DNA from: Bacteroidota bacterium
GTDB lineage: Bacteria > Bacteroidota > Bacteroidia > Flavobacteriales_D > Crocinitomicaceae
Direction of reading: 5' to 3'
Assembly: GCA_046046325.1 (NCBI GenBank)
Contig: JBJOJZ010000079.1
Location: 7,274 to 71,273, forward strand
Length of the DNA stretch: 64,000 bases
The notes beneath the pieces are model-generated. The model did no database searches, was not told the origin of the DNA, and saw only the letters and a list, made by a program, of their open reading frames with translations. Shown here piece by piece: positions 4,488 to 64,000 of the stretch; the first letter of the stretch is position 1, and each line of letters begins with the position of its first letter. The position numbers and the translations under genes were made by a program.

Positions 4488-5353
4488 CCAAGATAACTTT
4501 TCAATGCTTTATTCTTCGAAGTATGCTTTAATCGGCGAATTGCCTTTTCTTTGATCTGCCGAACTCGTTCACGGGTTAAGTCAAATTTATCCCCGATTTC
4601 CTCTAAAGACATAGCAGGCTTACCATCCAATCCATAGAACATACAGATGACTTCGCTTTCTCTAGGAGTAAGTGTTAATAATGAATGTTTTATGTCCGTT
4701 CGAAGCGATTCCATCGTTAGGTTTGTTTCCGGTGTTAGCATCCCTTCGCCGCTCATGACATCGTACATGTTCGAAGACGATTCATCACCTTCAACCAGAG
4801 GTGCATCCATGGAAACGTGACGTCCGTTTTGAGCTAAAGATTGCTTAACTTCGTCCATACTGCAGTTTAAGAATTCTGCTAATTCCTCTGCCGATGGTGG
4901 ACGTTCGAATTTCTGTTCTAATTCAGAAAATGCGCGGTTGATTTTATTGATATTACCAATTTTATTCAAGGGCAACCGCACGATTCTTGCTTGTTCTGCC
5001 AAGGCCTGTAAAATGGATTGGCGAATCCACCAAACAGCATAGGATATGAACTTAAAGCCTCGGGTTTCATCAAATCGTTCAGCAGCTTTAATCAACCCCA
5101 AATTTCCTTCGTTGATGAGGTCAGGAAGTGCTAGGCCTTGATTTTGGTATTGTTTCGAAACGGAAACGACAAAACGTAAATTTGCCTTGGTTAATCGTTC
5201 CAATGCGGCCCGATCACCTTCCCTGATTTTTCTCGCGAGTTCTACCTCTTCATCTGCGGTAATTAACTCCACTCTACCAATTTCTTGTAGGTACTTATCT
5301 AAGGATGCTGTCTCCCGATTTGTCACCTGCTTTGCAATTTTCAGCTGCCTCAT
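4484..5353 (-). CDS. rpoD: primary-type RNA polymerase sigma-70 factor
   Basis: Region 2 ([26 protein letters not shown]) and region 4 HTH ([27 protein letters not shown]). At 289 aa it matches the short primary sigma of Bacteroidota. Confidence 0.9.
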
Positions 5354-5449
5354 AGTTTAATTTTAGTGAATTGTGTCCACCCTTAACGCACAAACATCAA
5401 AAAGGTTAGCCTTTATTGGGTAAAAAATTGAAAAAAATGAAAAAAGCAC

Positions 5450-6424
5450 CTATTTATGGTACCCCAAACTGTGCCTTACCCTCGATAAAACTCCCTCCGC
5501 GACGTCTTTTGCTCTAGAGGCACCAAACAATAAAATTTGTTCTACTTCTGCCGTGTTGGTCATGTAATAACTGTAAGCGGCTCGTTCCTTTTGGAATTTG
5601 AATAAAATTAACTCAAATAAAGCCTGTTTAGCATGTCCGTAACCGTAACCTCCAGAAAGATAATTTTGTCGCATTTCCAAGACTTCTTTGGGCTCGGCAA
5701 GAAGCGAAAACAATTTAAAAATATTACACGTATCTGGATTTTTGGGGTCTTCAAGTGGTGTGCTATCGGAAGCAATCGCCATTATACGTTTCCGTAATGC
5801 CTTCTCCTCTTCAAAAATATCAATGGTATTATTACGCGACTTGCTCATTTTATGACCATCAGTACCGGGAATAAGCATAACTGTTTCGTCAATTTTCTCC
5901 TCGGGTAAAACAAATACCTCTCCCATTTTCGCATTAAATCTTGAGGCTACATCCCGTGTAAACTCGAGGTGTTGGAGCTGATCTTTCCCAACAGGAACAC
6001 ACGTTGCATCGTACAACAAAATATCCGCTGCCATAAGCATTGGATAAGTAAAAAGACCGCCATTAACATCCTCTAAACGATCCGCCTTATCTTTAAAACT
6101 ATGGGCTAAGGTCAACCGTTGAAACGGAAAAAAAGACAAAAGGTACCACATAAGTTCACCTACTTGTGGAACATCACTCTGACGATAAAAGACTGATTTT
6201 TCAGGGTCAAGGCCAAAGGCGAGCCAAGTAGCCGCGGTAGAATACGTATTATTTCGCAGTAATTCGGCATCCTTGATTTGGGTTAAGGCATGCAAATCCG
6301 CAATAAAATAAAAGGAATCGTTCGATGGTACTTTAGACAGTTCAATCGCCGGGATAATAGCACCTAAAATGTTTCCCAAATGAGGTGTTCCTGTGCTTTG
6401 AATGCCGGTTAATATTCGTGGCAT
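5450..6424 (-). CDS. trpS: tryptophan--tRNA ligase
   Basis: HIGH-type motif (GIQSTGTPHLGN) and KMSKS (GHKMSKS). Length 324 aa. Confidence 0.92.
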   Translation of the reverse strand: MPRILTGIQSTGTPHLGNILGAIIPAIELSKVPSNDSFYFIADLHALTQIKDAELLRNNTYSTAATWLAFGLDPEKSVFYRQSDVPQVGELMWYLLSFFPFQRLTLAHSFKDKADRLEDVNGGLFTYPMLMAADILLYDATCVPVGKDQLQHLEFTRDVASRFNAKMGEVFVLPEEKIDETVMLIPGTDGHKMSKSRNNTIDIFEEEKALRKRIMAIASDSTPLEDPKNPDTCNIFKLFSLLAEPKEVLEMRQNYLSGGYGYGHAKQALFELILFKFQKERAAYSYYMTNTAEVEQILLFGASRAKDVAEGVLSRVRHSLGYHK

Positions 6425-7932: not shown

Positions 7933-8049
7933 GGTAGGTAGGTTAGTAAAATAGCGTGAAACAGATAAGGTTAATTCTCATCGGTGTACAATACGTCTCA
8001 ACCTGGATAAAATTGCCCAGAAGTTAAAAACGATGGATTCTTTTGAAGT

Positions 8050-8967
8050 TTATGAAATAGAAAAACAATCACCATCCTTCACCGCAGTGGTATTCGAAAA
8101 CACACCTTTTGCCTCCTCTTCAAGCTCCAATATATTGGAGTATCTCGAAGAATAATGTCCAATAAGTAAGTGGTTTACACCTACGTTCAATGCCTGTAAA
8201 CCTGCGTCTTCCGCCGTGGAATGAAACGTTTCATTGGCCCTTTTTTTACGATCCTTAAGAAACGTAGCTTCATGGTATAAGGTCGTGGTCCCCTCCAAAT
8301 AGTTGGTCAACGCCTTAAAAGGCATAGTATCGGAACAATAGGCATAGGCACGTGCTTTGGGTTTGGGTAAAGCAAAATCTTCAAACCTCATCCAGGTTCC
8401 ATCCATCCGCTGAAAGTCGCATCCTTCTGCCAATAATTTTCGGTGCTCATTCGATACCGCATGAAGCTCTAATTTACGTTTATCTAAAGGAAAACGTTGG
8501 TGCTTTTCTTCAATTTGAAAACCAAATGTTTTGATCCTGTGACGCAATGGAAAAGCAAAAATGCTCAAACCTGCATCTTCAAAAATAAGGTGTTTTTCTT
8601 CCTTTTCAATCGCGTGAAAGGTAAATGGAAAATCCAATCGAGTTTGGCTAGCATTGAAGATAACTTGAAGAATATTATGTAATTCGGGCGGGCCAAAAAT
8701 TTCAATTCCTGATGTCCTTCCAAGCAAACTCATGGTTCCGAGAAGCCCTGGAAGACCGTAGAAATGATCTCCATGCAAATGAGAAATTAAAATCGTGTTG
8801 ATGCGCTGTATCGACAAGTTAAATTTTCGAAGTTGCAATTGAGTGCCTTCACCGCAATCGATCAGGATACTTCGATTATTACAAGTAACAAGCTGCCCCG
8901 AACATGAACGCTCCAAACTTGGAACGGCGGCAGAACTCCCTAAGATGTGAACGGAAAAATTATTCAA
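8050..8967 (-). CDS. rnz: ribonuclease Z (metallo-beta-lactamase tRNA 3' endonuclease)
   Basis: HxHxDH motif (ISHLHGDHFYGLPGLL). Length 305 aa. The start overlaps the upstream STAS stop by 8 nt. Confidence 0.88.
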   Translation of the reverse strand: MNNFSVHILGSSAAVPSLERSCSGQLVTCNNRSILIDCGEGTQLQLRKFNLSIQRINTILISHLHGDHFYGLPGLLGTMSLLGRTSGIEIFGPPELHNILQVIFNASQTRLDFPFTFHAIEKEEKHLIFEDAGLSIFAFPLRHRIKTFGFQIEEKHQRFPLDKRKLELHAVSNEHRKLLAEGCDFQRMDGTWMRFEDFALPKPKARAYAYCSDTMPFKALTNYLEGTTTLYHEATFLKDRKKRANETFHSTAEDAGLQALNVGVNHLLIGHYSSRYSNILELEEEAKGVFSNTTAVKDGDCFSIS

Positions 8968-9298
8968 AATCCTTTAACGCCTCGTCCATGGTTGAATATA
9001 TATTCAATACGGATGATAATTGCGCAATCTCAATCATTTTTAGCACCATAGGTTGTATGTTACTGATTGCAAAAGTACCATTGGTGTCCTTACACAAACG
9101 ATTACCCACTAAAATTGCACTTAACCCAGAAGAATCACAAAACTTTGTTTTTTCGAGATTTAATAGCATTTTATTTAGCCCTTTCTTTTGTTCGAATGTG
9201 AATATCCCTTTCAATTCTGGAGCCGACTGAGTATCCAATCGTTCCGCAAGTACATGGACAAATAATACATCGTTTCGGACTTCAATCTTGAAACTCAT
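8960..9298 (-). CDS. STAS-domain protein (anti-sigma-factor-antagonist-like)
   Basis: SpoIIAA-like core with the conserved phosphorylatable-serine context (FCDSSGLSAILVG). The ATG at 9298 (MSFKIEVRND) is preferred; the track start at 9349 would overlap the pyrB 3' end by 23 nt. Confidence 0.75.
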   Translation of the reverse strand: MSFKIEVRNDVLFVHVLAERLDTQSAPELKGIFTFEQKKGLNKMLLNLEKTKFCDSSGLSAILVGNRLCKDTNGTFAISNIQPMVLKMIEIAQLSSVLNIYSTMDEALKDFE

Positions 9299-9326
9299 GG
9301 CAGGAATTTTACCAAATATACCAAAT

Positions 9327-10256
9327 TTAGCGTTCAATACTCGAGGCAAGTAAATAAATTACCGCCATGCGAACGGCAACACCGTTTTCTACTTGATTCA
9401 AAATTATACTATTAGGACTATCGGCAACTTCGGATGTAATTTCAACTCCGCGGTTTATAGGTCCTGGATGCAATAGCACTATTTCTTTTCCCAATGAATC
9501 TAATATCGACTGACTTAATCCAAAATTCAAGGTATAGTCCCTTAAACTTGGGAAATACTCGGTTTCTTGACGCTCCAACTGAATGCGTAACATGTTGGCA
9601 ACGTCACACCAAAGCAAAGCCTCCCTAAGGTTATTTGAAACATGAACTTGCAAATGTTGAATATGTTTTGGCATTAAAGTGGAAGGACCACAAACCATTA
9701 CCTCAGCACCTAATTTTTGCAAACAGTAAATATTGGAAAGTGCTACTCTAGAATGCAATATATCGCCTATGATAGCCACCTTTTTACCTTTTAAATCTCC
9801 CAATGTTTCTCGTATTGAGTAAGCGTCTAAAAGGGCTTGTGTAGGATGTTCGTGTGTTCCGTCACCCGCATTGATAATTTTTGCAGAGGTATGTTGTGAT
9901 AAAAAGAGTGCTGCTCCAGGAGAAGCGTGCCTTAATACCACCATATCCACTTTCATTGCCAGAATGTTATTCACGGTATCAATCAAGGTTTCCCCTTTTT
10001 TAACAGAACTGTTGGAGGCCGTAAAATTCACAACATCCGCCGATAATCGTTTCGCTGCAAGCTCAAAAGAAAGACGAGTTCTCGTCGAATTTTCAAAGAA
10101 CACATTCGCTAGGGTAATGTCGCGTAACGAAGGAACTTTTTTAATAGGCCGATTGATGACCTCTTTGAAAGCATCAGCCGTCTTAAAAATGGTTTGAATA
10201 TCCGTCAAGTTTAAATCACGTATACCCAGTAAATGTGGGACGCTTAAATTATTCAT
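9327..10256 (-). CDS. pyrB: aspartate carbamoyltransferase catalytic subunit
   Basis: STRTR carbamoyl-phosphate motif (FFENSTRTRLSFE), HEHPTQALLD and HPGPINRG. Confidence 0.93.
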   Translation of the reverse strand: MNNLSVPHLLGIRDLNLTDIQTIFKTADAFKEVINRPIKKVPSLRDITLANVFFENSTRTRLSFELAAKRLSADVVNFTASNSSVKKGETLIDTVNNILAMKVDMVVLRHASPGAALFLSQHTSAKIINAGDGTHEHPTQALLDAYSIRETLGDLKGKKVAIIGDILHSRVALSNIYCLQKLGAEVMVCGPSTLMPKHIQHLQVHVSNNLREALLWCDVANMLRIQLERQETEYFPSLRDYTLNFGLSQSILDSLGKEIVLLHPGPINRGVEITSEVADSPNSIILNQVENGVAVRMAVIYLLASSIER

Positions 10257-10806
10257 TGGAATGTTTTATGTATAATTCCACCCTATCCTCACCCTCAATG
10301 TTTTTCCAGCTTACATGGACTCGTTCATGGTTCAAGGTATCCACGGATTTACCGATATAATCTGCTTGAATTGGAAGATCTCGTTTAAACCTACGATCAA
10401 TTAGGACCAATAATTGAACTTGGCTCGGTCGCCCAAAGGTCAAAAGTGCGTCTAGTCCCGATCGAATTGTTCTACCCGTAAATAGCACATCGTCCACTAA
10501 AATCACTTTTTTATTTTCGATGCTAAAGTCAATATTGGTTACACTTGGTATCAAAGGAATTTCCCTCCGGCGAAAATCGTCGCGGTAAAAGGTAATGTCT
10601 AAATTCCCACATAAAGGTTGGGTGGGAAGAATTTCATTAAGTTTTTCACGCATACGTGATACTAAATGAACGCCACGTGGCTGCAAACCAATTAAAACGG
10701 AATTGGAAAAATCAGCATGTTGTTCCAGCAATTCATGACATAACCGAGTTACGGTTAAATCAAACTGTTGAGGATCTAGGATGACCTGTTTCTCCATGCT
10801 CAACAA
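10249..10806 (-). CDS. pyrR: bifunctional pyrimidine operon regulator / uracil phosphoribosyltransferase PyrR
   Basis: PRPP-binding loop VILVDDVLFTGRTIR. Length 185 aa. Overlaps the pyrB start by 8 nt. Confidence 0.88.
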   Translation of the reverse strand: MLSMEKQVILDPQQFDLTVTRLCHELLEQHADFSNSVLIGLQPRGVHLVSRMREKLNEILPTQPLCGNLDITFYRDDFRRREIPLIPSVTNIDFSIENKKVILVDDVLFTGRTIRSGLDALLTFGRPSQVQLLVLIDRRFKRDLPIQADYIGKSVDTLNHERVHVSWKNIEGEDRVELYIKHSNE

Positions 10807-10825
10807 AGATAATTAAAAAAAGAGG

Positions 10826-11308
10826 TTATGCGTGTTTCTGAACTAATACCGTTGCGTAAGCTTTTACTGCTTCACCTTGTCCAAAGGAATCAACGCTCTC
10901 ATGGGTAGTCGCTTTGATCGAAACACAATCCACATCTACCCTTAAAATATGTGCAATAACCTTTTGCATTTCAGGAATAAAGGGGTTTAATTTAGGGCGT
11001 TCTAGAATTACCGTAGCATCAAGATTAACAAGAGCGTAGCCTCTTTCCGCGATCATTTCATAAGTTCGCGAAAGTAAGATTTGAGAATCGATGTCCTTGT
11101 AGGCTGGGTCTTTATCTGAAAAGTGATAACCAATATCGCGCAAATTCACCGCGCCTAGCAACGCATCGCAAATGGCATGCAACAACACGTCCGCATCTGA
11201 ATGACCTAGGGCCCCAAAGGAGGAGGGAACTTTAACCCCGCCGATTACCAATTCCCGTTGTTCCACCAATCGATGAACATCAACTCCAAAACCGATACGC
11301 AATTGCAT
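10826..11308 (-). CDS. ispF: 2-C-methyl-D-erythritol 2,4-cyclodiphosphate synthase
   Basis: RIGFGVDVHRL ... GHSDADVLLHAICDALLGA. Length 160 aa. Confidence 0.93.
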   Translation of the reverse strand: MQLRIGFGVDVHRLVEQRELVIGGVKVPSSFGALGHSDADVLLHAICDALLGAVNLRDIGYHFSDKDPAYKDIDSQILLSRTYEMIAERGYALVNLDATVILERPKLNPFIPEMQKVIAHILRVDVDCVSIKATTHESVDSFGQGEAVKAYATVLVQKHA

Positions 11309-11311
11309 GAA

Positions 11312-12559
11312 TTATTCCGTTGTTTTAACTGGACGATCTCCTAGGTACAACCTCAAGGTAAACCGTAGGGTATTCGCCAATGGATTTTGGCGACCGTTCA
11401 AGGAAGCTAGATACGAAAAATCAATCCCAAACATATTATACTTTAGACTTGCCCCCAAATTGAGGTATTGACGGTTTCCTTTATTCCTATTTTCATAAAA
11501 AACCCCAGATCGAATGGCAAACGTTTCATTATACCACCATTCCACGCCACCGGCAATATTGATCTCCGCCATTTCTTCTTTAAATCTTGAACCCTTAACA
11601 ATTTCGTAAGATCCATCATCATTCTGAATATAATCACCGTTTTCATCCTTCGCAACCACACCAGGGGCATCGTAAAATGATTGCAACATACCATTGATTA
11701 CCCCAACATCGTTGCTGCGTCCAGACAACATAACTACCTGACCATTAATATTATCATAAAATGCCGGAGTAGGAACCAATAATCGTTGAATATCCAAGGA
11801 ATAAGTAACCGTATTATATCCATCGTATTTGGCTTGAAATGCATTTCCAATTTTGAGATTCATGGGAATGAAATCACGTTCCGCTAATACGGAATAAGCT
11901 ACCTTATTACCGATATTGTTGATCGTGGTAGCAAAGGTGTATGTACCTTTGGTTTTACCGATTTTCGCTTTATCGTTAAAATAGGTGAACGATAAATCTG
12001 CTGCTCCCACCATCCCAGGTTTGGTCATAACACCTGCGACGGTTAAACCGCCGGTTAGGTTTGAATAGGCAAATTTGCCATTGATTCCCACACTAAATTT
12101 TTCTGATAGTTTAAATGCATAGCCACCGGTCAATTCAAATTCGTTCGGTTTGTCGTCTCGTAAGACATTCCCCGAAGCGTCTGTAAAGGTTATTTCGCCC
12201 AAACTAAAATATCGAAGTGCCCCGGCAATCGTATGCTTCTTGTTAAACCTGAAATACCCTGAAAAATAGGAAAGGTGCATGTCGTTGGTCAATTGACGCA
12301 ACCAAGGGGTGTAAGAAAGGCTAAGTTCGCTGTTTGACTCAGAAAAACTCAATCCTGCAGTGTTCCAATAAATGGAAGTAGCGCTTGGACTCAAAGCCGT
12401 TCCTGCTTCGCCCATACCACCTGCTCTCGAATCCGGTGTTATCGCCATAAAGGGTAAAGCGGTGGTGATGGTATTTAGCTGTAAATCATTGGATTCTGCC
12501 TGAGAGAAACCATAATTTACGAGCACCAATACAACGAGGAGTAAAAGAAATTTTTGCAT
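11312..12559 (-). CDS. porV: type IX secretion system outer-membrane protein PorV (LptO)
   Basis: Signal peptide, then the PorV-type N-terminal block (ALPFMAITPDSRAGGMGEAGTA). Beta-barrel-like alternating sequence. Immediately downstream of porU, as in other Flavobacteriia. Confidence 0.8.
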   Translation of the reverse strand: MQKFLLLLVVLVLVNYGFSQAESNDLQLNTITTALPFMAITPDSRAGGMGEAGTALSPSATSIYWNTAGLSFSESNSELSLSYTPWLRQLTNDMHLSYFSGYFRFNKKHTIAGALRYFSLGEITFTDASGNVLRDDKPNEFELTGGYAFKLSEKFSVGINGKFAYSNLTGGLTVAGVMTKPGMVGAADLSFTYFNDKAKIGKTKGTYTFATTINNIGNKVAYSVLAERDFIPMNLKIGNAFQAKYDGYNTVTYSLDIQRLLVPTPAFYDNINGQVVMLSGRSNDVGVINGMLQSFYDAPGVVAKDENGDYIQNDDGSYEIVKGSRFKEEMAEINIAGGVEWWYNETFAIRSGVFYENRNKGNRQYLNLGASLKYNMFGIDFSYLASLNGRQNPLANTLRFTLRLYLGDRPVKTTE

Positions 12560-54317: not shown

Positions 54318-54932
54318 ATGAAATTTTACAACGTTCATACCCACCGTTTACGCTCCCATGAAGTCGCCATCGTACAATCCGTCAATGCCCCGATAAATCA
54401 TTGTCATTCCTCAGGAATACATCCTTGGTTTGCGGACTCTGCCCTCCTGCCCTCGTTGGCAATTGCCTTGGAACATCCTGCATGCAAGGCCCTTGGCGAA
54501 GTGGGTTTGGATCGAATTAAAGGTCCCAGCATAGAAATTCAATGTAATATACTCGAGAAGCAACTATCCCTTGCTGCTAAGCACCATAAACCGGTCATTT
54601 TCCATATCGTTCGCGCTTGGGAAGAATTTTACGCCCTGCAGAGAACTCAGCAAGTAACTCCTTGGGTTCTGCACGGCTTCAACCAACCAAGGCAATTCCC
54701 TAGGTTACTCGATACCCCGGTATACCTCAGCATAGGTCCAGGTGCTTTGTCCAACCTCGCCATGCATCCCTTGCTTTCAAAAATCCCCCTCGAGCGCTTG
54801 TTGTTTGAAACCGACGATAGCGACAAGGAGATTCAGACGGTTTACCACCGTTTTTGCGGCATAACAGGATTCGAACTCATGGCGCTATCTCGACAAATCG
54901 AACAGAATTTTTTGGCTATTTTTGGGGCATGA
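54318..54932 (+). CDS. TatD-family metal-dependent hydrolase (short)
   Basis: N-terminal HTH motif (NVHTH), EVGLD and ETD blocks. Length 204 aa. Confidence 0.7.
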   Translation: MKFYNVHTHRLRSHEVAIVQSVNAPINHCHSSGIHPWFADSALLPSLAIALEHPACKALGEVGLDRIKGPSIEIQCNILEKQLSLAAKHHKPVIFHIVRAWEEFYALQRTQQVTPWVLHGFNQPRQFPRLLDTPVYLSIGPGALSNLAMHPLLSKIPLERLLFETDDSDKEIQTVYHRFCGITGFELMALSRQIEQNFLAIFGA

Positions 54933-55651
54933 ATCATTGGTTGGAAAGGTCGGAACTGTTGATCGGTTCAGAAAAACTCGAAAAACTGGCGAAATCGCAC
55001 GTAATGATTGTTGGACTCGGTGGCATTGGATCGTTTGCCGGAGAATTCATTGCACGGGCGGGCGTGGGCACGCTGACCCTCATCGACGGCGACGTCTTCG
55101 ATCCCACCAACAAAAACCGTCAGCTAACGGCCTTGGATTCCACCATTGGAAAAAACAAGGCGGTTGTTTTAGCCGAACGCATCAAGGACATTAATCCGAA
55201 TGCCAAGGTAAATGTACTCGAAGAATTTGTAGTTCCAGAAAGGGTTTGGGAGTTGCTCAACGAATACCAACCGGACTACGTAATGGACTGTATCGACTCA
55301 GTTTCACCCAAACTTGCGTGGTTGCTCTGCTGTAAAAAGCAGAAGATTAAAGTGATTACCCACTTGGGCGCTGGGGGTAAATCGGATCCTTCCACGGTGC
55401 ACGTAGCCAACTTGGTCGACACCCACAATTGCAAGCTGGGTTCGCACATCAAAAAACGCATCAAGCGTCAAGGCGCCTCATTGAGAGGCATCAAGGCCGT
55501 ATTTTCTTCCGAATTGCAGGATAAAAAATCGCTTAAAATGACGGATGGAACGAAATTCAAAAAATCCTTTTATGGAACCATTAGCTACATGCCGGCACTC
55601 TTTGGCTTACACGGTGCGGCGGAGGTGATTCGGTATTTGAGTTCGAAGTAG
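54929..55651 (+). CDS. tcdA: tRNA threonylcarbamoyladenosine dehydratase (ThiF/E1-like)
   Basis: VGLGGIGS nucleotide loop, LIDGDVFD..N.NRQ and DCIDS. The ATG at 54929 forms an ATGA overlap with the tatD stop. Confidence 0.8.
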   Translation: MNHWLERSELLIGSEKLEKLAKSHVMIVGLGGIGSFAGEFIARAGVGTLTLIDGDVFDPTNKNRQLTALDSTIGKNKAVVLAERIKDINPNAKVNVLEEFVVPERVWELLNEYQPDYVMDCIDSVSPKLAWLLCCKKQKIKVITHLGAGGKSDPSTVHVANLVDTHNCKLGSHIKKRIKRQGASLRGIKAVFSSELQDKKSLKMTDGTKFKKSFYGTISYMPALFGLHGAAEVIRYLSSK

Positions 55652-56737: not shown

Positions 56738-57772
56738 ATGAAACATTATCTACTTTTTGCTGCAGGAATTTTTGCCGTAACGTGTAATGCACAAATTACC
56801 CTCGACCAAGGGGACATGCCCTCCGTGGGCGACAACATTCCTAGAAAATCCGACACCATGACCGTTTTAGCCGGTCCCGGGGGCAGCGGTCCGAACCAAA
56901 CGTGGAATTTCACAGCTACCAGCAACTATGTTATTACCGAGAATACCAGCGTGGTATCGGTAGCGTCAACGCCCAACGGAAACCAATTTGGGAATTCCAA
57001 CATGGCCATGACCAACGACAACGCGAGTTATTTGTACTTTAATAAAAGTGCTCAATCGTTCACCACTCAAGGATTTTCTGGAGATTTATTGGGTTCAGGC
57101 ATCATCAATGCCGTGTTCAACCCGGATTTAACCTTGCATCAATTTCCGAGAACTTTTGGTTCGAGTTTCAACGACAGCTATGTCATTGACGTGATTGTAC
57201 CAGGGGCAGCCTTCAATCCCTTGGTAAGTCAGATCCGTTTTAAGCGATCTTCGATGGTCCACGACACCACCGATGCTTGGGGACAAATCACCACCCCGCA
57301 CGGAACCTATGACGTATTGCGCATTCACACCACGGAAACGTTCACCGATTCCATTTGGGCTTTGCCGATATTTCCACCAACTTGGAGTTTGGTGAGCACG
57401 AGTTCGGACGTTACCAACAGCTATTCTTGGGTGGGTAAAGGCGGTAAATTGGCTATTGCGGAGATGAGTTTCGACACCCTAGGAGCTCCAAAGATTTTTA
57501 AATGGACAGAACTTCCTGGAATTGGTGTGGGGTTAGAGGAGTCCAATGTTGCCAACCTGGAAATTTATCCAAATCCGTGTGGCGATGCGATAACAGTTTC
57601 TGTTGATGTGGAACAACTTGGAGAAGCATATGCTGTGTTTGACCCGCTGGGAAAACGCATACTTGAAGGAACCGTTTGCGCTGAAGTACAACCAATCAGA
57701 ATGGACAACTTACCTTCTGGAAATTATATCTTGCGCATTGGAACGCAATGTTGCAGGTTAACAAAATCCTAA
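56738..57772 (+). CDS. secreted protein with T9SS C-terminal sorting domain
   Basis: Signal peptide (AVTCNAQ). C-terminal ~70 aa resemble the type-A T9SS CTD (LEIYPNPCGDAITVS...LPSGNYILRI). The passenger domain is unknown. Confidence 0.65.
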   Translation: MKHYLLFAAGIFAVTCNAQITLDQGDMPSVGDNIPRKSDTMTVLAGPGGSGPNQTWNFTATSNYVITENTSVVSVASTPNGNQFGNSNMAMTNDNASYLYFNKSAQSFTTQGFSGDLLGSGIINAVFNPDLTLHQFPRTFGSSFNDSYVIDVIVPGAAFNPLVSQIRFKRSSMVHDTTDAWGQITTPHGTYDVLRIHTTETFTDSIWALPIFPPTWSLVSTSSDVTNSYSWVGKGGKLAIAEMSFDTLGAPKIFKWTELPGIGVGLEESNVANLEIYPNPCGDAITVSVDVEQLGEAYAVFDPLGKRILEGTVCAEVQPIRMDNLPSGNYILRIGTQCCRLTKS

Positions 57773-57784
57773 GCCCTCGGCTTA

Positions 57785-58291
57785 TCAACGGTACAATTCA
57801 TAAGGAGAAACTTCAACGAGTTGTCCTTTGCGGTTTTTCACCAAATAGTTGACGTAATAACTGAGGTCATTCCCTCCTACTTTAACCTCCACGATTACCG
57901 CACTGGTGGAATCCACTTTAAACCTTGCGACATCTCCGGGTCTAAACTCTGTGATTTCCAGCACGCGGTCGCGGAGTTTTGCGTTGTAAATCACGGCTCT
58001 CATGGGATGGTAATAGTCTACCCAATCTTGCAAAGAATCACGCTTTTGAGTCATGCGCCGATACTCCTTTTGCATGGATTTAAGTTCCGAATTTAACTCC
58101 TTCATCTGTTCCTTAAAGACCTTGGCTTGTTGCTCCGAGTCGCGCTTTTGGTCCATTAAGGATTTAATCAGTAAAAAAATCAAAACAGCCACCATCAAAC
58201 CCACGACAGCGTAAATGACCATCTTGCTTAATTCCACTTTCTTGGGAGCTTCAGGAGGAAGAGTATTCATATCGTTTTCTAATTGTTGCAT
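57785..58291 (-). CDS. single-pass membrane protein with coiled coil and small C-terminal beta domain (unknown function)
   Basis: TM helix MVIYAVVGLMVAVLIFLLI, heptad-rich KEQMKELNSELKSMQKEYRRM and a C-terminal beta-rich ~60 aa. Lies 50 nt downstream of the 1119-aa gene with no promoter box or terminator between them. Confidence 0.65.
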   Translation of the reverse strand: MQQLENDMNTLPPEAPKKVELSKMVIYAVVGLMVAVLIFLLIKSLMDQKRDSEQQAKVFKEQMKELNSELKSMQKEYRRMTQKRDSLQDWVDYYHPMRAVIYNAKLRDRVLEITEFRPGDVARFKVDSTSAVIVEVKVGGNDLSYYVNYLVKNRKGQLVEVSPYELYR

Positions 58292-58341: not shown

Positions 58342-61300
58342 TTAAAAACCCAAGCCTTTAAATGCTTTAATCTCCTTGATTTTATGTTCAAATTCAGCAA
58401 GCACCTTTGGCAATTCCTGTTCGTTGTTCACAGGAACCCAATGCTGCAATTCAATTTTAGATGGAACGATTTTTTTACCCCAAAAGTCGACCCTAAAACC
58501 GGGCCATCCGAAAAAGGCTACGGGAATAATTTTGATGAATTTCGCATTGAAAGCGCTTTCAAAGGTGAGTTCTAAGGTGGAAAAACCATCGTTCAATCCT
58601 TCTAAATCGCTGAGCGTTTGCCAGTTCTTTTTATCCACGGAATACATGATATGAAAACGTGTTACATAACTTTTACCGTGAGGTGCTCCCTTAAGGACTA
58701 GTTGCGAAACGGACATTGCCTCGGGAAGTTCCACTTGCCACCATTGTTTATCGTCTTGCTTTGCGGCACACCAGTACGTTTTTTCATTAGAAATTAATGC
58801 GTGGTGGGCTTTGTAATTGCGGTTATAATCGGAAGAAGAGGTCATAACTGCCGAAGAATTGCTTAGGATCCAGTAAGGATCGTTCAATGCGGCCTCGCCT
58901 TTGGTTACAAATTTCCAACTTGAATCGTTATTGGCTTTATTCTGCATTTGTTCCATCAATTGCGCTCCTTTGAGGGAATCTCCGACGTGCAACACCACTC
59001 CCGCCATCATTTGATCTTGTTGGAACTCCAACCCCCAACCCAACCAATGCGCTACGCCCTTACCAGAATAAACATAATCCAAGAATCGATAACCTTTCAT
59101 CCAATTGCGTTCACGGGTGATGGTATTGGAGAAAAGTCCTTGAAGCGATGGATTAATTTCCTCCAAAACCTCCGCCATTGAATTACCGAAACGGGTTAAC
59201 ACGGGTTGGGTTAACTTCAATCCAAGGAATGAGACATACGATTTTGAACAAGCATCCGCCAAAGCAGTTAAAAAGAAGGAGGTCAAAGGTCGAGGGTCAA
59301 ATCGTTCCAAATCCTCCACTTTACATTGGACTAAAAACTTACTGCGTTTAAAGTGGAAACGTGCATTTTCAAACGATAGACCTTCCAAGGACTCAAGGAT
59401 TCTTTCAACAGGTTCATGGATTTCAGGTTGCAAATAACCCGCGCAGGAAATATAAATTAAGTAATTCAGTTCATTGTTAAAATAGTCTTGTTTGATTTGA
59501 AAACTAATGCACAAGGGATACCCTTTGATTCTTGGTCGGAATTCACGGGAAAAGTAACCCAAATGCACACTACCTTTCAAACCATCGTTAGAAAGTTGGT
59601 TGTCGCTCGAATCCTGGGTTTCCATTCCTTCATCCACTTCATCCCCCCCTTGGTCGGAAGGAAGGTCTTCTTCCGTGGCCTCACTTAAACCGCAACCCAA
59701 CAGAAGGTCTTCAAGGCTGGTTAGCTTACTCCTAATGAGCGCTTCATCTTGATCAATTACGTAAGACCCGTTGAGCATATTTTGGTAATCCCGGTTGACC
59801 GCCTCAAATACCCCCTTAAACAAGTTAAACGCGATATCAAAGCTATCGATAAGAACGGATGGATTGGCAATGATCTCCTCCACTTTATGGTAGAATTGAA
59901 TTTGATCAAATCCATAAATAAAATCATAGAACCAAGGAAAACGGCTCATCGACTCGGTAAAGGAGTAATAGGTGTTATTGTTCAGGCTGTCCCATAAAAC
60001 AAGGTTAGGGTATTTTTTCAAATCTTCCGAATACTCCATGGCGAAAGACTTCAAATGTTCTACAAAAACATTGAGAAGGAGCCCATAATTTTCTAAGTCT
60101 TTGTAATCCTTCCAATCAGGAAGATATCCAATAGCAGCGCCGCCGGACGAATAAAGGGAAAAGTGCAGGGCTAGAATTTTCTTACTGGGTAAATTCTTAG
60201 GATATAAGGTACACCATGCATACCCTGTCATAACGCCAATTTGCCAATTGTTTTGTTTGGTATCCCATTCGGAATCTTCGTCCAAACATAGTTTTGTTAA
60301 CCGAGATTGTACGAAATGGTCTAATGAAGCGAAAGCGGTACGATGCCAATATTCCTTGGTGCCGAATTTATACGAATCTTCCCTTATTTTAAAGATACTC
60401 TCCTTGGTTGCGTGTCTAAATACTCCCATACCAATCAACCACTTATGGGCTGCCATTAAACCTTGAAAATCGGTTAATTCCTCTATGGTAAACTGCAGTA
60501 CCTTATTCCTTCGAACCTCATCCGGGTCAACATTCAAGGCAAAGGTTCGTTCCAAAAAAACTTTATCAAATGTTACGTTATCCACCCCGTATTGTTGCCC
60601 GGTAAGTTTTAACAAAAATTCATTGTAGGTTTTCGTGGTTATAGCATGGTCAACGACCTCTATAAAACGTTTATCTACCTCCGGAAAAGGGTCTTCAATG
60701 TTCAACTCAGTTGCAACACTTACAATCAAGGCTTTCACTTGTTCCTTGGATAATCCCATGCGGGTTTTGCCAATAGACTCAAAGAAATTTAGCTCATCTA
60801 AGCTAATTTGTTCATCATCCAAAGCTGCCTTTATCGATTCTTTTAGATCTTCTACTGTCGCTTTGTTTCGGAGCTCCTCTTCTTCTTGACGTATTTTCTC
60901 AACGGCTTCCTTTCCAGCGCGAAGAAGCAATTTCCAATCCGAAAGCAACACGGTATCATTCGCCGCAAACACCTTAATACCTTCCGGATAATCGGCGGTT
61001 TTAGTTACTTCCAGAGGTTCGTTACTGTCTTCGCTGATCAGAGTAAGCACCCCCTGTTCGTTGCTGTCCACCACAAACTGACGAAACTCCCAAATCTTCC
61101 CAAGTTCATTGATTACCTGGTTTAAAGCGCTTTCTAAAAACGGGTTTGTTGCATCAAAATACTCCTCGCTGAAAGGCCAAGAAACTATTTTTCCTTTCAC
61201 TTCCTTGTGTGGATGAGCAACGCGATTTCTAAGTTGAATGAAAACATCAAAAAACTCCAACAAATTCACCTTTCCAAGGTTATTCTTAAGAGCCTGCGAA

Positions 61301-61701
61301 ATGAGGTCAGCGTAATTCGGTTGATCGTTTTCTACCGCTGATTTCAGCGCACCGTATGCTTTCACGAATTTGGATAATTCAGGAAGCTCGTTTGAACCGT
61401 GTAAAAGTTCTTGTATTTCTGAGGGTTGCTTTTGTTGATACAAAAACTTGGAGGACTCCCGAAGCCAACCCAAGTATATGCCAAAACTGACATTTTTACC
61501 ATTCTTTAAAAACGACTTCTCAAGTTCGATTGAAACCAAGCCCGTTTCTTTATACTCGCCCAAAACAAAAGAACATAGATGCATTACTAGGCTTTCACCA
61601 AGGTCCAATAGGTACTTTTGCTTGGCCGCTTTTTCTCGTGCCCTTGCTAAATCGCTGATCGTTTTCTCAAGGTTCTTGGGGAGTTGGTTCGTGATATTCA
61701 T
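58342..61701 (-). CDS. large cytoplasmic multidomain protein: N-terminal HEPN-like (RNxxAH) region and C-terminal discoidin/F5-8 type C domain (function unknown)
   Basis: Uninterrupted ORF with no signal peptide. Motif FFDVFIQLRNRVAHPH, with RNRVAH encoded at 61213-61230. Acidic linker around 59590-59700. Discoidin signature at 58477-58869 (TYWCAAKQDDKQWWQVELPEAMSVSQLVLKG...YVTRFHIMYSVDKKNWQ...AKFIKIIP...FRVDFWG). The start is set at the ATG at 61701 (MNITNQ) because the upstream ATG (61728) lies inside the -7 box. The gene itself is well supported; the functional labels are low confidence. Confidence 0.8.
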   Translation of the reverse strand: MNITNQLPKNLEKTISDLARAREKAAKQKYLLDLGESLVMHLCSFVLGEYKETGLVSIELEKSFLKNGKNVSFGIYLGWLRESSKFLYQQKQPSEIQELLHGSNELPELSKFVKAYGALKSAVENDQPNYADLISQALKNNLGKVNLLEFFDVFIQLRNRVAHPHKEVKGKIVSWPFSEEYFDATNPFLESALNQVINELGKIWEFRQFVVDSNEQGVLTLISEDSNEPLEVTKTADYPEGIKVFAANDTVLLSDWKLLLRAGKEAVEKIRQEEEELRNKATVEDLKESIKAALDDEQISLDELNFFESIGKTRMGLSKEQVKALIVSVATELNIEDPFPEVDKRFIEVVDHAITTKTYNEFLLKLTGQQYGVDNVTFDKVFLERTFALNVDPDEVRRNKVLQFTIEELTDFQGLMAAHKWLIGMGVFRHATKESIFKIREDSYKFGTKEYWHRTAFASLDHFVQSRLTKLCLDEDSEWDTKQNNWQIGVMTGYAWCTLYPKNLPSKKILALHFSLYSSGGAAIGYLPDWKDYKDLENYGLLLNVFVEHLKSFAMEYSEDLKKYPNLVLWDSLNNNTYYSFTESMSRFPWFYDFIYGFDQIQFYHKVEEIIANPSVLIDSFDIAFNLFKGVFEAVNRDYQNMLNGSYVIDQDEALIRSKLTSLEDLLLGCGLSEATEEDLPSDQGGDEVDEGMETQDSSDNQLSNDGLKGSVHLGYFSREFRPRIKGYPLCISFQIKQDYFNNELNYLIYISCAGYLQPEIHEPVERILESLEGLSFENARFHFKRSKFLVQCKVEDLERFDPRPLTSFFLTALADACSKSYVSFLGLKLTQPVLTRFGNSMAEVLEEINPSLQGLFSNTITRERNWMKGYRFLDYVYSGKGVAHWLGWGLEFQQDQMMAGVVLHVGDSLKGAQLMEQMQNKANNDSSWKFVTKGEAALNDPYWILSNSSAVMTSSSDYNRNYKAHHALISNEKTYWCAAKQDDKQWWQVELPEAMSVSQLVLKGAPHGKSYVTRFHIMYSVDKKNWQTLSDLEGLNDGFSTLELTFESAFNAKFIKIIPVAFFGWPGFRVDFWGKKIVPSKIELQHWVPVNNEQELPKVLAEFEHKIKEIKAFKGLGF

Positions 61702-61721
61702 GCTAAAGATAATCTGTAGGG

Positions 61722-61729
61722 CAAACATA
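61722..61729 (-). promoter_or_regulatory. candidate -7 box for the 1119-aa HEPN-motif/discoidin gene
   Basis: TATGTTTG on the minus strand. It contains the ATG of the longer track ORF. 20 nt to the ATG at 61701. Confidence 0.45.
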
Positions 61730-61783
61730 CCTATTTTGAACCATTAGAATATCACATAAACATAATTATTTATCCAATTTATC

Positions 61784-61791
61784 TACCTTTG
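61784..61791 (+). promoter_or_regulatory. candidate -7 box for the DHH-motif ORF
   Basis: TACCTTTG. 16 nt to the ATG at 61808. Confidence 0.45.
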
Positions 61792-61807
61792 TTGACTCAA
61801 CCAAGCT

Positions 61808-64000
61808 ATGAAGTTTCACTACCATTTTATCCCACAGGGTGCAAGGGCTACTCACAACCTTGAAGAAAACACATTTACGGTGGATTACAATGCCGGAACG
61901 CGTGATAAACCGAACGCTGTTGTATTGAAACTTCCTGCGGATCAGACGGTCATTTTGGATACGGGAAATTTACTCCAACCTGGAATCATCGACCACCATC
62001 AGCCCGGTTGTGAATACAGTAATCAGTGCGTGGCATCCATTGTTGTACAACATGCAGAAAAATATCTGGGACATTGCCTCGGCAAAGATGAAGTTCATAT
62101 CGTGACGCATTTCTTGCCCGATTTAGACGCCATAAGTGCGGTTTATTTTGCTCAAAAATTCCTCAGCGGCCAACCGTTCAGCGCATTCGACGGATTGTTT
62201 TGCGATTATGTTAACATGGTGGATTTAGGAAAACTCATCCTTGATCCAGATCATCCCGTTGGTATTGCTTCGCTCTGGTTAAGCCATACGTCCAATGTTG
62301 ATTACGGGATCGCCTTTACCCAGGACTTCAACAAAAAACTACTTCAACAAGGTTTATCCTTCATCGAAGCGGTAATAACCGTAACTGAAGAAGAAGAGAA
62401 CCCTTGGATCAACCACGGATTTGACGAAGTAGCAAGCCTTCAGCCTCATTGCGACAAAATCATCAATGATGCGCACCAGTACGCAGAAGATTTTAAAAAC
62501 TCAGTTACTGGAATTGTGGAACTATACAACGCTGAAACAAGAGGATTCGACGAGGTTGAAGTCATCATTTCGAAAGAAGCAAAGAGTTTTCTGTGGAAAT
62601 ATTGGGTGCGCGGTGATCGTCGAAACACCTTGTTTAAAAGAGGGTTTGTTCTCACTTGTTTGCACTATCCGAATAAATCGATTATCAGCGTTCCTTCCAA
62701 CCTCCCATATCACTTGAAAGGATTGGGATTGTACATCGATAGCCTTGAAATTAAAGGGCTTTTAGCGCATAAAAATCAGCCGGAACTAACGGCAGCAATT
62801 GATGCCTTGGTAACAGGTAGCGAAGGCACCCCGAGGGTTGGATTTCACCGAAACGATCCATGGTATGATGGGCGTGGGGCCCACAATTTCACCATCATCG
62901 ACGTTCCACGAGCCGGTAGCTTGTTGGACCACGAAACCCTTGACGCCTCCATCTTCGCCTATCGTTTATGGAATGAATTTGGTCAAAAATTTAACCTAAC
63001 ATCCTTGGATGTTGCATCCCAAGAAGCCTTGTCGGCGGTAGAAGAACTTGCATTGAACGAACGTCCCTATTTTAATAAAACCAATGACAATTCCTCACTG
63101 CATTCTCAGATTGACGCCTACCACATTCGATTGGGTGTTAAACAGGTTCAATACCTATTGAATTCCTACGTTGACCATACGCATGACTTGAGCGAACGAA
63201 ATGTACAAAGTATCAAAGAATGGGTGGAAACGGCGGGTAACCATATTGAAGCATTAGTGACCGAACCCAGTAACGACGTATTCATCAATTCGGATCGCAT
63301 CAAAGATTTCATGATGGAACTCCATCGGATTTCCTTTTCCCAGTATGCCTTTATTGTTAAAGTTCGGCATTGGAGCACGTTGTTGGCGAAATACATTGCG
63401 GAAGGATTCTCCTTTTTTCACTCAAGGGCGTTTGACGACCAAAAAAACGAGCTAGTTGAAAAGTTGGAGCCCTACATTAATCCGACGTTTGCGAGAACCA
63501 TGCTCGATGTGTGCCAAAGCCTACCGGTAAAATCGTTTTCGTTGCTCTTCATTAAAATCGAAAAGGACATTAAGAATTCCGATTTGTTTTACTCCTTATT
63601 GGCCTATCAGAGCGTTTTCAGTCGAGCGTTTTCTCCTCAGTCTATTCAAGAGTTTTTTACAGGTAACGTAAAAATATCTTCCGACTGTTCGGACCTGGTG
63701 GGTGCCATTGAATACGAAAAATGGGATGAACCTTTCTTTGAAGAGATACCATTGTATTCTTATAATAGCATCAAGAACTATGCTGACGATTTATTCCACT
63801 TGCTCGAAATGGAAAATCCGGGGGCTTTGAGAATGGAGGCTTTGCACGAATTCCAACAAACCGATTTTAAGCAAATCTTCGATGTTCAGTTGAACGCAAA
63901 TTCCCATAAATCCCTTGAAAAATTAACCACCTTTTTTTCGGAAAATAAACAACAAATAGTAAAACAACTTTTTGGGGAAAATTGCAAAAATTTACGCAAG
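61808..64000 (+). CDS. large ORF (at least 731 aa, 3' end outside window) with DHH/MYG1-like phosphoesterase motifs; absent from the supplied ORF track
   Basis: The ATG at 61808 is the first start after an in-frame TGA (61793-61795). I translated the frame by hand to nt 64000 (731 codons) without meeting a stop. Motifs: VILDTGN-x8-IIDHHQ (DHH at 61991-61999), HFLPDLDAIS (62108-62137), DGRGAHNF (62867-62890). A perfect -7 box lies 16 nt upstream. The gene itself is well supported; the functional label is low confidence. Confidence 0.8.
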   Translation, partial: MKFHYHFIPQGARATHNLEENTFTVDYNAGTRDKPNAVVLKLPADQTVILDTGNLLQPGIIDHHQPGCEYSNQCVASIVVQHAEKYLGHCLGKDEVHIVTHFLPDLDAISAVYFAQKFLSGQPFSAFDGLFCDYVNMVDLGKLILDPDHPVGIASLWLSHTSNVDYGIAFTQDFNKKLLQQGLSFIEAVITVTEEEENPWINHGFDEVASLQPHCDKIINDAHQYAEDFKNSVTGIVELYNAETRGFDEVEVIISKEAKSFLWKYWVRGDRRNTLFKRGFVLTCLHYPNKSIISVPSNLPYHLKGLGLYIDSLEIKGLLAHKNQPELTAAIDALVTGSEGTPRVGFHRNDPWYDGRGAHNFTIIDVPRAGSLLDHETLDASIFAYRLWNEFGQKFNLTSLDVASQEALSAVEELALNERPYFNKTNDNSSLHSQIDAYHIRLGVKQVQYLLNSYVDHTHDLSERNVQSIKEWVETAGNHIEALVTEPSNDVFINSDRIKDFMMELHRISFSQYAFIVKVRHWSTLLAKYIAEGFSFFHSRAFDDQKNELVEKLEPYINPTFARTMLDVCQSLPVKSFSLLFIKIEKDIKNSDLFYSLLAYQSVFSRAFSPQSIQEFFTGNVKISSDCSDLVGAIEYEKWDEPFFEEIPLYSYNSIKNYADDLFHLLEMENPGALRMEALHEFQQTDFKQIFDVQLNANSHKSLEKLTTFFSENKQQIVKQLFGENCKNLRK

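Follow-up and report, generated by a model that had tools for sequence, protein, structure and literature searches.

At the end of a 64,000-nucleotide stretch of Bacteroidota DNA (contig JBJOJZ010000079.1, positions 7,274 to 71,273; hereafter the window), an open reading frame (ORF) at 61808-64000 on the forward strand encodes what we predict to be the N-terminal half of an inner-membrane protein of ~1,420 residues, built from a DHH-like head, a long middle region, and six C-terminal transmembrane helices. Very probably the head derives from the DHH superfamily, with motifs II and III transposed ahead of motif I. This rearranged DHH module lies within a new candidate conflict system. An earlier reading of the DNA letters (hereafter the sequence-only reading) had picked out the ORF and the atypical order of its motifs; the motif IV candidate, the C-terminal membrane domain, the partner gene, and the conflict-system context described below go beyond it.

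The gene and the DHH-like head of its product

Translation of 61808-64000 yields 731 sense codons and no stop, and the frame is open at the window end. Both the ATG at 61808 and the in-frame TGA upstream of it (61793-61795) are where the sequence-only reading had placed them. That reading had also explained why the ORF was missing from the mechanical ORF list by a stop beyond the window, and the list does omit frames that run past its end. The frameshift or overlooked stop that it had offered as a check was not found: the translation is free of stops, as are orthologues in three Bacteroidota contigs (91%, 86%, and 84% identical). Codon differences from these three orthologues are 144:69, 154:100, and 202:116 synonymous to non-synonymous, or ~1.5-2 to 1. 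The ORF is a genuine gene on which purifying selection acts. The N termini of homologues agree with the start, sharing MKxxFxFIPQGA (examples are MKINFEFLPQGA and MKFKFDFIPQGA). Upstream, TACCTTTG (61784-61791, 16 nucleotides before the ATG) fits the Bacteroidetes -7 promoter consensus TAnnTTTG, and we take it to be a putative promoter element. Since the closest orthologue (91% identity; L007:10001-14266, from a lake Bacteroidetes metagenome-assembled genome) is 1,421 residues long, the window holds about half of the gene. Other full-length relatives of this long class have 1,388 (L010), 1,361 (L016), and 1,420 (L018) residues. The features of the gene are as follows.

61808..64000, forward strand: first 731 codons of a ~1,420-codon gene; the last ~690 codons lie off the window
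61808..62992, forward strand: two-domain head module, residues 1-395 (predicted model and profile comparison)
61946..62002, forward strand: motif II/III block VILDTGNLLQPGIIDHHQ, residues 47-65 (D50, D62, H63, H64), upstream of motif I
62090..62146, forward strand: motif I block VHIVTHFLPDLDAISAVY, residues 95-113 (H101, D105, D107)
62207..62233, forward strand: motif IV-like YVNMVDLGK, residues 134-142 (D139, G141), at a helix end
62597..62617, forward strand: KYWVRGD, residues 264-270, basic/acidic signature in the second domain (K264 91%, R268 97%, D270 99%)
62855..62908, forward strand: DPWYDGRGAHNFTIIDVP, residues 350-367, the family's most conserved block
62993..64000, forward strand: residues 396-731, beginning of the long-class middle region

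All three motif matches proposed by the sequence-only reading are present: VILDTGN...IIDHHQPG at residues 47-67, HFLPDLDAISAVY at 101-113, and DGRGAHNF at 354-361. The spacer between VILDTGN and IIDHHQPG, however, is 5 residues long (LLQPG) and not 8, so that Asp50 and Asp62 are 12 residues apart and the pattern is LDTGN-x7-DHHQ (residues 49-65). THFLPDLDAIS (residues 100-110) fits motif I (HxxPDxDxxGS) and is aligned to motif I by both Pfam and hhalign. Across 164 relatives, the sample behind all conservation figures for the head, the metal-ligand positions whose invariance the earlier reading had suggested checking are 88-100% conserved: D50 96%, D62 100%, H63 88%, H64 97%, H101 94%, D105 95%, and D107 100%. 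Because both motif blocks are nearly invariant family-wide, the loss of Asp and His residues that would have spoken against a DHH relationship is not seen. Further downstream, VDxGK (residues 138-142; D139 92%, G141 97%) resembles 'GIIVDTKSF' of GdpP motif IV, and from its pattern and its position at a helix end VDLGK looks like the counterpart of DHH motif IV.

In canonical DHH proteins the motifs follow one another as I-II-III-IV; Aravind and Koonin reportedly described this phosphoesterase superfamily (Pfam PF01368) in 1998. In the head the order is II-III-I-IV, which implies transposition of a segment and not a simple circular permutation. The limits of the head were set from an alignment of 17 first-pass homologues and an AlphaFold2 model (predicted local distance difference test score, pLDDT, 81.4; predicted template-modelling score 0.81), in which a catalytic-type domain (residues ~38-232) is followed by a second alpha/beta domain (residues 233-395). 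In the model a beta-rich N terminus leads into a strand ending at D50 (LDTGN) and, after a short link, into a strand ending with D62-H63-H64. A helix (residues 75-90), the strand VHIVTH (residues 95-101), and PDLD (D105, D107) come next, and are followed by two helices ending in VDLGK (D139) and by three further helices. The model places no beta-strand between residues 101 and 233; all strands of the catalytic sheet except that of motif I therefore lie N-terminal of motif I.

Profile comparisons recover the same arrangement. Segment profiles of canonical GdpP were rebuilt from gene fragments of 47-134 residues. A single combined alignment of the fragments performed poorly (hhalign probability 43%), and splitting it into two segment profiles gave matches: the motif I segment of GdpP aligns with positions 77-147 of the family (E 1.3e-5, probability 80.5%), and its motif II/III segment with positions 22-134 (E 1.1e-5, probability 82%). 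In GdpP itself the II/III segment is found ~70-85 residues C-terminal to motif I (fragment P0271). When the family profile is run with HMMER against GdpP and another canonical DHH structure, it aligns as two pieces in swapped order. The hydrophobic flanking strands and the ASSxxELV-type helix after DHH also match canonical DHH proteins.

Structure searches point the same way. Four NrN entries lead the Foldseek matches of the head in the PDB (E 2.8e-3 to 1.1e-2, probability 0.72-0.89), with RecJ, Cdc45, and the DHHA1-like C-Ala domain of AlaRS below them, and the top match among viral models (BFVD) is a Harvfovirus 'DHH family phosphohydrolase' of ~390 residues (E 3.5e-5, probability 0.96). The sequence-only reading had offered a permuted fold or a fortuitous match as alternatives; conservation, hhalign, and Foldseek favor the former, although proof at the level of the fold is incomplete. 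Its suggestion that DGRGAHNF is a degenerate GGGH of a DHHA1-type domain fared less well. The motif does lie where the second domain is most conserved (P351 and W352 100%, D354 and G355 99%, R356 91%; pattern DPWYDGR..H..TIIDxP), where pLDDT is low (48-55), but its equivalence to DHHA1 found weak support: AlaRS C-Ala domains are matched by Foldseek at E 0.2-1.6, Pfam DHHA1 (PF02272) has no match in the head, and YDGRGAH stands where GGGH is expected. The block at residues 350-367 is a possible counterpart of the DHHA1 substrate-binding loop.

Beyond the head, residues 396-731 of the middle region have no match in Pfam, NCBIfam, PADLOC, or the PDB, and conservation of this region is confined to the long class. 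Full-length relatives contain ~750 residues without a recognizable domain between the head and the membrane helices. Six hydrophobic segments occupy the final ~270 residues in 18 of 19 aligned long-class sequences (P0004 is without the C-terminal region), and these six helices are strongly conserved among long-class members. The long-class sequence after the head, middle region included, is not a diverged CorA: hhalign against the CorA-type C terminus of a ~850-residue class (below) gave probabilities of 0.2-15%, and there was no PADLOC match.

Fusions of the head and the linked partner gene

An initial word-index search had returned 17 relatives only. An exhaustive profile search found at least 1,442 cluster representatives (50% identity) at E<=1e-3, 518 of them at E<=1e-30. 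Pfam was run on 56 hand-picked, fusion-bearing representatives, in which the head is joined to a protein kinase (24), TIR (15), HD-CE (3), NACHT/AAA_16 (2), or a nucleotide cyclase (1). In a class of ~850 residues (800-900), 29 of 32 members match PADLOC models of CRISPR-type CorA (best E 2.9e-28), and the class also matches the C-terminal part of CorA structures in the PDB, transmembrane helices included. The heads of this CorA-fused class and those of the window type are recognized by hhalign as related with a probability of 100% (E 2e-77). A stand-alone head of ~400 residues adjoins an AAA_16+TPR STAND protein (~1,360-1,400 residues) in all six loci with flanks, and a kinase-fused form precedes a 1,599-residue WD40 protein. 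By the company it keeps, which is typical of such elements, the head appears to be a mobile module recurrent in prokaryotic conflict systems.

Some of these loci have further features. At L039:1147-11170 and L040:629-10638, four co-directional genes encode a partner-like protein (~900-980 residues, no discoidin domain), a Sel1-repeat protein of ~370 residues, a 1,359-residue AAA_16+TPR STAND protein, and the stand-alone head. In the kinase-fused head (702 residues) at L004:10001-16953 the motifs are degenerate, with LNVGN and with SENLSFD replacing THxxPDLD, and the head of this subfamily may be catalytically inactive; it is here that the WD40 protein follows, and nearby genes encode an SbcCD-like pair and a PDDEXK protein. 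The most distant long-class genes (L045:2174-8853, L047, L048) are found directly 3' of ATP synthase alpha and gamma genes.

In the window, the long-class gene is divergent from a partner gene.

61729..61807: intergenic region of 79 bp between the divergent genes
58342..61728, reverse strand: partner gene, 1,128 residues, divergent from the long-class gene
58516..58845, reverse strand: F5/8 type C (discoidin) domain, partner residues 962-1071 (Pfam E 4.6e-22)
61213..61230, reverse strand: RNRVAH (R167-H172) of the partner, HEPN-type Rx4H, followed by an invariant Pro

The partner consists of a conserved N-terminal half, a variable middle, and a C-terminal discoidin domain, which has PDB profile matches down to 1e-38 and Foldseek template-modelling (TM) scores of 0.7-0.84 to discoidin domains. 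All 50 matches listed when the model of the full-length partner was searched against the PDB are discoidin domains, and a profile of the discoidin-less partner form found nothing in the PDB. In the N-terminal half, no variation is seen at R167, N168, or H172 among 37 long and 11 short partner homologues (family motif RNxxAHP). HEPN models of Pfam match two of six members below threshold (HEPN_RiboL-PSP, E 0.0023 and 0.0088; HEPN_Apea, E 0.096). The invariant Rx4H and the polar residue after the Arg are features of HEPN RNases of the RiboL-PSP and Apea type, to which these sub-threshold matches may also point.

Linkage of the two genes was scanned with module hidden Markov models (HMMs) on 49 sequences (the window and 48 loci, L001-L048). 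Each of the 19 informative loci has a partner homologue next to its long-class gene: the genes are divergent in 13, the partner is upstream and co-directional in two, and it is downstream and co-directional in four; no locus with both flanks visible is without a partner. In L010 the long protein is 41% and the partner 60% identical to those of the window and all other flanking genes differ. In L016 a 1,301-residue partner relative precedes a 30%-identical long protein, co-directionally and with a 33-nucleotide gap. The remaining genes around the pair are unrelated between loci such as these. A 168-residue ORF at 57785-58291 was rejected as a part of the module, being absent from L010 and L016. 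Shorter partner-like proteins accompany the stand-alone head and the STAND protein in L001, L039, and L040.

Tandem partner genes stand beside a single long-class gene at L030:2-10007 (reverse strand), L022:1222-8023 (reverse strand), and L018:8001-14875 (forward strand); L030 has up to three partner genes and a fragment, with near-identical N-terminal and strongly diverged C-terminal halves. Tandem paralogues in L018 and L030 are 85-86% identical over their first 480 residues and 36-42% identical beyond. The partner of the window is itself a mosaic: one L018 paralogue matches its C terminus at 89% identity, whereas the other is the closer one at its N terminus. A conserved N terminus with a diverged, mosaic C terminus is characteristic of proteins that couple a conserved part for signalling or effector action to a recognition part undergoing diversification, and the partner looks like a sensor on this pattern. 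NLR/Avs-like sensors likewise combine a conserved N-terminal module with a hypervariable, recognition-like C-terminal half and tandem paralogues; the partner differs from them in having no NTPase domain.

Partner-family proteins also occur in other settings. At L013:5349-11318, co-directional genes encode a ThsA-like SIR2 protein (PADLOC E 2.9e-33), a 442-residue CRISPR-type CorA-like protein (E 5.5e-10), a 158-residue ORF, and a partner-family protein; the CorA-like gene is two genes upstream of the partner, and a leucine-rich-repeat protein and DUF4116 lie upstream of the cluster. This looks like a second candidate system with the same partner family and no DHH-like head. At L014/L015 a 455-residue ORF (4800-6164, reverse strand), weakly CorA-type by our own HMM (E 2e-6), is 1.8 kb from the partner (8001-11342, forward strand), with a run of small ORFs and DUF4407 downstream.

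Proposed mechanism and alternatives

The closest precedent comes from CRISPR immunity. In the type III-B CRISPR system of B. fragilis the CorA effector has SAM-AMP as its ligand, and the DHH phosphodiesterase NrN breaks this compound down (PMC10600005); immunity requires NrN along with CorA, and the two are in some cases fused (PMC10600005; bioRxiv 10.1101/270033). Like the head, NrN (PDB 9lq9, 9lqa), its best Foldseek match in the PDB, is a DHH phosphoesterase coupled to a membrane effector and occurs in Bacteroidota, and NrN-CorA fusions have their parallel in the large class of the present family that is a head-CorA fusion. NrN differs in its canonical order of E21, D85-H86-H87, and D119 (the triad from PMC10600005, E21 and D119 from PDB titles), in its size of ~250 residues, and in having no HMMER-detectable sequence similarity to the head. 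NrN systems have Cas10 as a partner, whereas the partner here is HEPN-like with a discoidin domain. The window protein also carries its own six-helix domain, unrelated to CorA, and is neither fused nor adjacent to a CRISPR-type CorA, unlike its ~850-residue sister class.

With canonical DHH/DHHA1 proteins (NrnA, GdpP, PggH, RecJ) the head shares motifs I-III and a putative motif IV, with their residue types and local context, and a two-domain build with a helical linker. It differs from them in the II-III-I-IV order, in PWYDGR..H instead of GGGH, in the missing strands between motifs I and II, in an extra N-terminal beta region (residues 1-43), and in scoring below Pfam thresholds. GdpP is membrane-anchored. 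MYG1/UPF0160 proteins have DVGG-x(8-10)-DHHQ with motif I (HxGxFHxDE) upstream, which is the canonical order. The family pattern LDVGN-x7-DHHQ is close to theirs, including the Gln after DHH; Pfam MYG1/UPF0160 (PF03690) gave no match to the ORF at E<=10. The giant-virus 'DHH family phosphohydrolase' that is the best BFVD match may be of the MYG1 type. In its use of one conserved head with interchangeable effectors (TIR, CorA channel, multi-transmembrane, HD, kinase), the family resembles CARF, SAVED, and cNMP-binding heads; CARF domains can degrade their own ligand. Fold and chemistry are unrelated, however, ligand binding by the present head is a prediction, and no cognate synthase was identified.

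Since the full Asp/His ligand set is kept, the head most likely still binds a divalent metal and a phosphate-containing ligand. From the metal-site motifs, the effector fusions, the membrane domain, the seemingly obligate pairing, and the NrN-CorA analogy taken together, we infer a membrane domain under ligand control. We hold, with middling confidence, that the two genes are a conflict system in which a DHH-like head with a nucleotide-type ligand controls a membrane effector; such a system would probably be anti-phage. The partner would sense a trigger. The head would bind a nucleotide- or oligonucleotide-type ligand, probably hydrolysing it slowly, and its handling of the ligand would switch the membrane domain on or off, much as NrN and CorA act together in type III-B CRISPR. 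The outcome would be membrane damage and abortive infection. A more specific variant, which we consider improbable, makes the two genes an immune system complete in itself that signals through a messenger derived from RNA. There, the variable, discoidin-bearing half of the partner would recognize a phage component and activate the HEPN-like RNase, and short RNA fragments or cyclic-phosphate ends would serve as the ligand of a nanoRNase-like DHH head, which would gate the six-helix domain (or, in the sister class, the CorA channel) and reset the system by hydrolysing the ligand.

Several results weigh against a ligand-controlled conflict system with a DHH-type head. No signal-generating enzyme was identified. 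The HEPN-like assignment of the partner relies on its motif and sub-threshold matches, and at least two distinct loci (L013, L014/L015) have a partner-family protein but no head, while the distant long-class genes of L027, L045, L047, and L048 have no partner in the flank available. PADLOC-DB v2 has no family that matches the ORF, a full-length orthologue, the partner, or a distant pair, and a plasmid tblastn search with two family heads found no phage or plasmid copies. The window pair is surrounded by housekeeping genes (COX15, ThiF, TatD, POT transporters) and shows no GC-content anomaly (0.414 and 0.426 against 0.415). As to the head itself, none of the curated models of Pfam, NCBIfam, and PADLOC matches it above threshold, and a sequence search of the PDB gave nothing meaningful. 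Pfam DHH scores 16.7 bits on the ORF against a gathering threshold of 28.1, Foldseek TM-scores are low (0.18-0.33), and moving motif I in front of II/III in five members brought no gain with Pfam (for example, 18.7 against 20.5 bits). D50, D62, H63, H64, D105, D107, and D139 are presumed to converge on one site.

These low scores are what could make the DHH resemblance convergent or fortuitous, another fold with Asp/His-rich motifs whose swapped order means nothing in evolution: every sequence-based match stays below its curated threshold, TM-scores are low, and reordering did not help. We judge this very unlikely. The two profile-profile alignments are independent and each reaches an E of about 1e-5, DHH proteins come out on top in two structure libraries, and four motifs, the one for IV being putative, match DHH I-IV together with the flanking hydrophobic strands and the helix after DHH. 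A sub-threshold Pfam DHH match moreover recurs on the motif I block in every member tested; relatives and sub-segments score 18.9-22.1 bits, again below 28.1, and 3 of 56 family members scanned at full length have E<1e-3. As for the reordering, the absent canonical beta2/alpha2 probably costs about what the reordered motifs add to the Pfam score.

A head that is itself the effector would be a membrane-tethered or fused exonuclease or phosphodiesterase of the RecJ/NrnA/MYG1 kind, with the membrane domain serving for localization only. Release by the partner or by a STAND sensor would let it destroy nucleic acid or a pool of nucleotides. Its catalytic residue set is 88-100% conserved, RecJ is among the Foldseek matches and many DHH enzymes are nucleases, the stand-alone form adjoins STAND NTPases, whose effectors are commonly encoded by a gene of their own, and effector proteins of conflict systems often carry several effector domains (TIR and HD, for instance). 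TIR, CorA channels, multi-transmembrane domains, HD, and kinases, however, are usually joined to ligand-sensing domains and not to a second nuclease; NrN, the nearest characterized analogue, degrades a signal and is not a killer; and a six-helix domain so highly conserved seems to be more than an anchor. We consider this reading unlikely. Somewhat less likely still is a housekeeping role, with a membrane-anchored Bacteroidota phosphodiesterase for second-messenger or nanoRNA turnover and an ordinary regulatory or ligand-binding protein as its partner. The COX15, ThiF, TatD, and POT transporter neighbors and the flat GC content would suit it, as would synteny kept among related freshwater Bacteroidota (L007, L018, L021), the absence of PADLOC matches, and the GdpP precedent for a membrane-anchored DHH phosphodiesterase. 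Such a role sits badly with a pair that travels as a unit between unrelated contexts, with tandemly amplified partner paralogues whose C-terminal half is a hypervariable mosaic, with heads fused to TIR, NACHT, and CRISPR-type CorA or linked to STAND NTPases, and with a partner family that also neighbors ThsA-like SIR2 and CorA-like genes.

Genomic surroundings and significance

Recent horizontal transfer of the pair was considered and rejected, GC content being flat. Nine ORFs scanned in the window (50-64 kb) include no cas genes, although no dedicated cas/CRISPR search was made; none were found in fetched loci whose genes were called either, with L019-L048 and the rest of the window not screened. 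Elsewhere in the window, a TatD-like ORF (54318-54932; Pfam match from profile position 44) overlaps the ThiF ORF (54854-55651; TTG start) by 79 nucleotides, and the true starts of both probably differ from the listed ones. A 344-residue protein encoded at 56738-57772 carries a C-terminal sorting domain of the type IX secretion system (Por_Secre_tail), which, along with the matches to Bacteroidota metagenome-assembled genomes, assigns the window to a freshwater Bacteroidota genome (Flavobacteriales-like).

When the literature was searched for a described DHH/STAND/TIR or DHH/HEPN system, the NrN-CorA work was all that came up; neither in that literature nor in the libraries searched did we find the head, its partner family, or the gene pair described. 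If our reading holds, a large family (at least 1,442 clusters at 50% identity) is named by no curated library, and its clearly rearranged DHH catalytic core would bear on the evolution of enzyme folds. The fusions (TIR, kinase, HD, NACHT, cyclase, CRISPR-type CorA, six-transmembrane) and the STAND linkage would identify the head as a component that prokaryotic immunity uses repeatedly, and the DHH-CorA theme would reach beyond CRISPR loci. The ligand of the head could reveal a new signalling molecule or off-switch logic, comparable to NrN and SAM-AMP. Were the RNA-messenger variant true, the rearranged DHH head would be a new, widespread class of immune-signal sensor beside CARF, SAVED, and cNMP-binding domains.

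To our knowledge, phage defence in the abundant freshwater and marine Bacteroidota has been poorly studied. The cassette occurs in these bacteria, and as two genes with a hypervariable, tandemly amplified partner it would be a testable new defence-system candidate.

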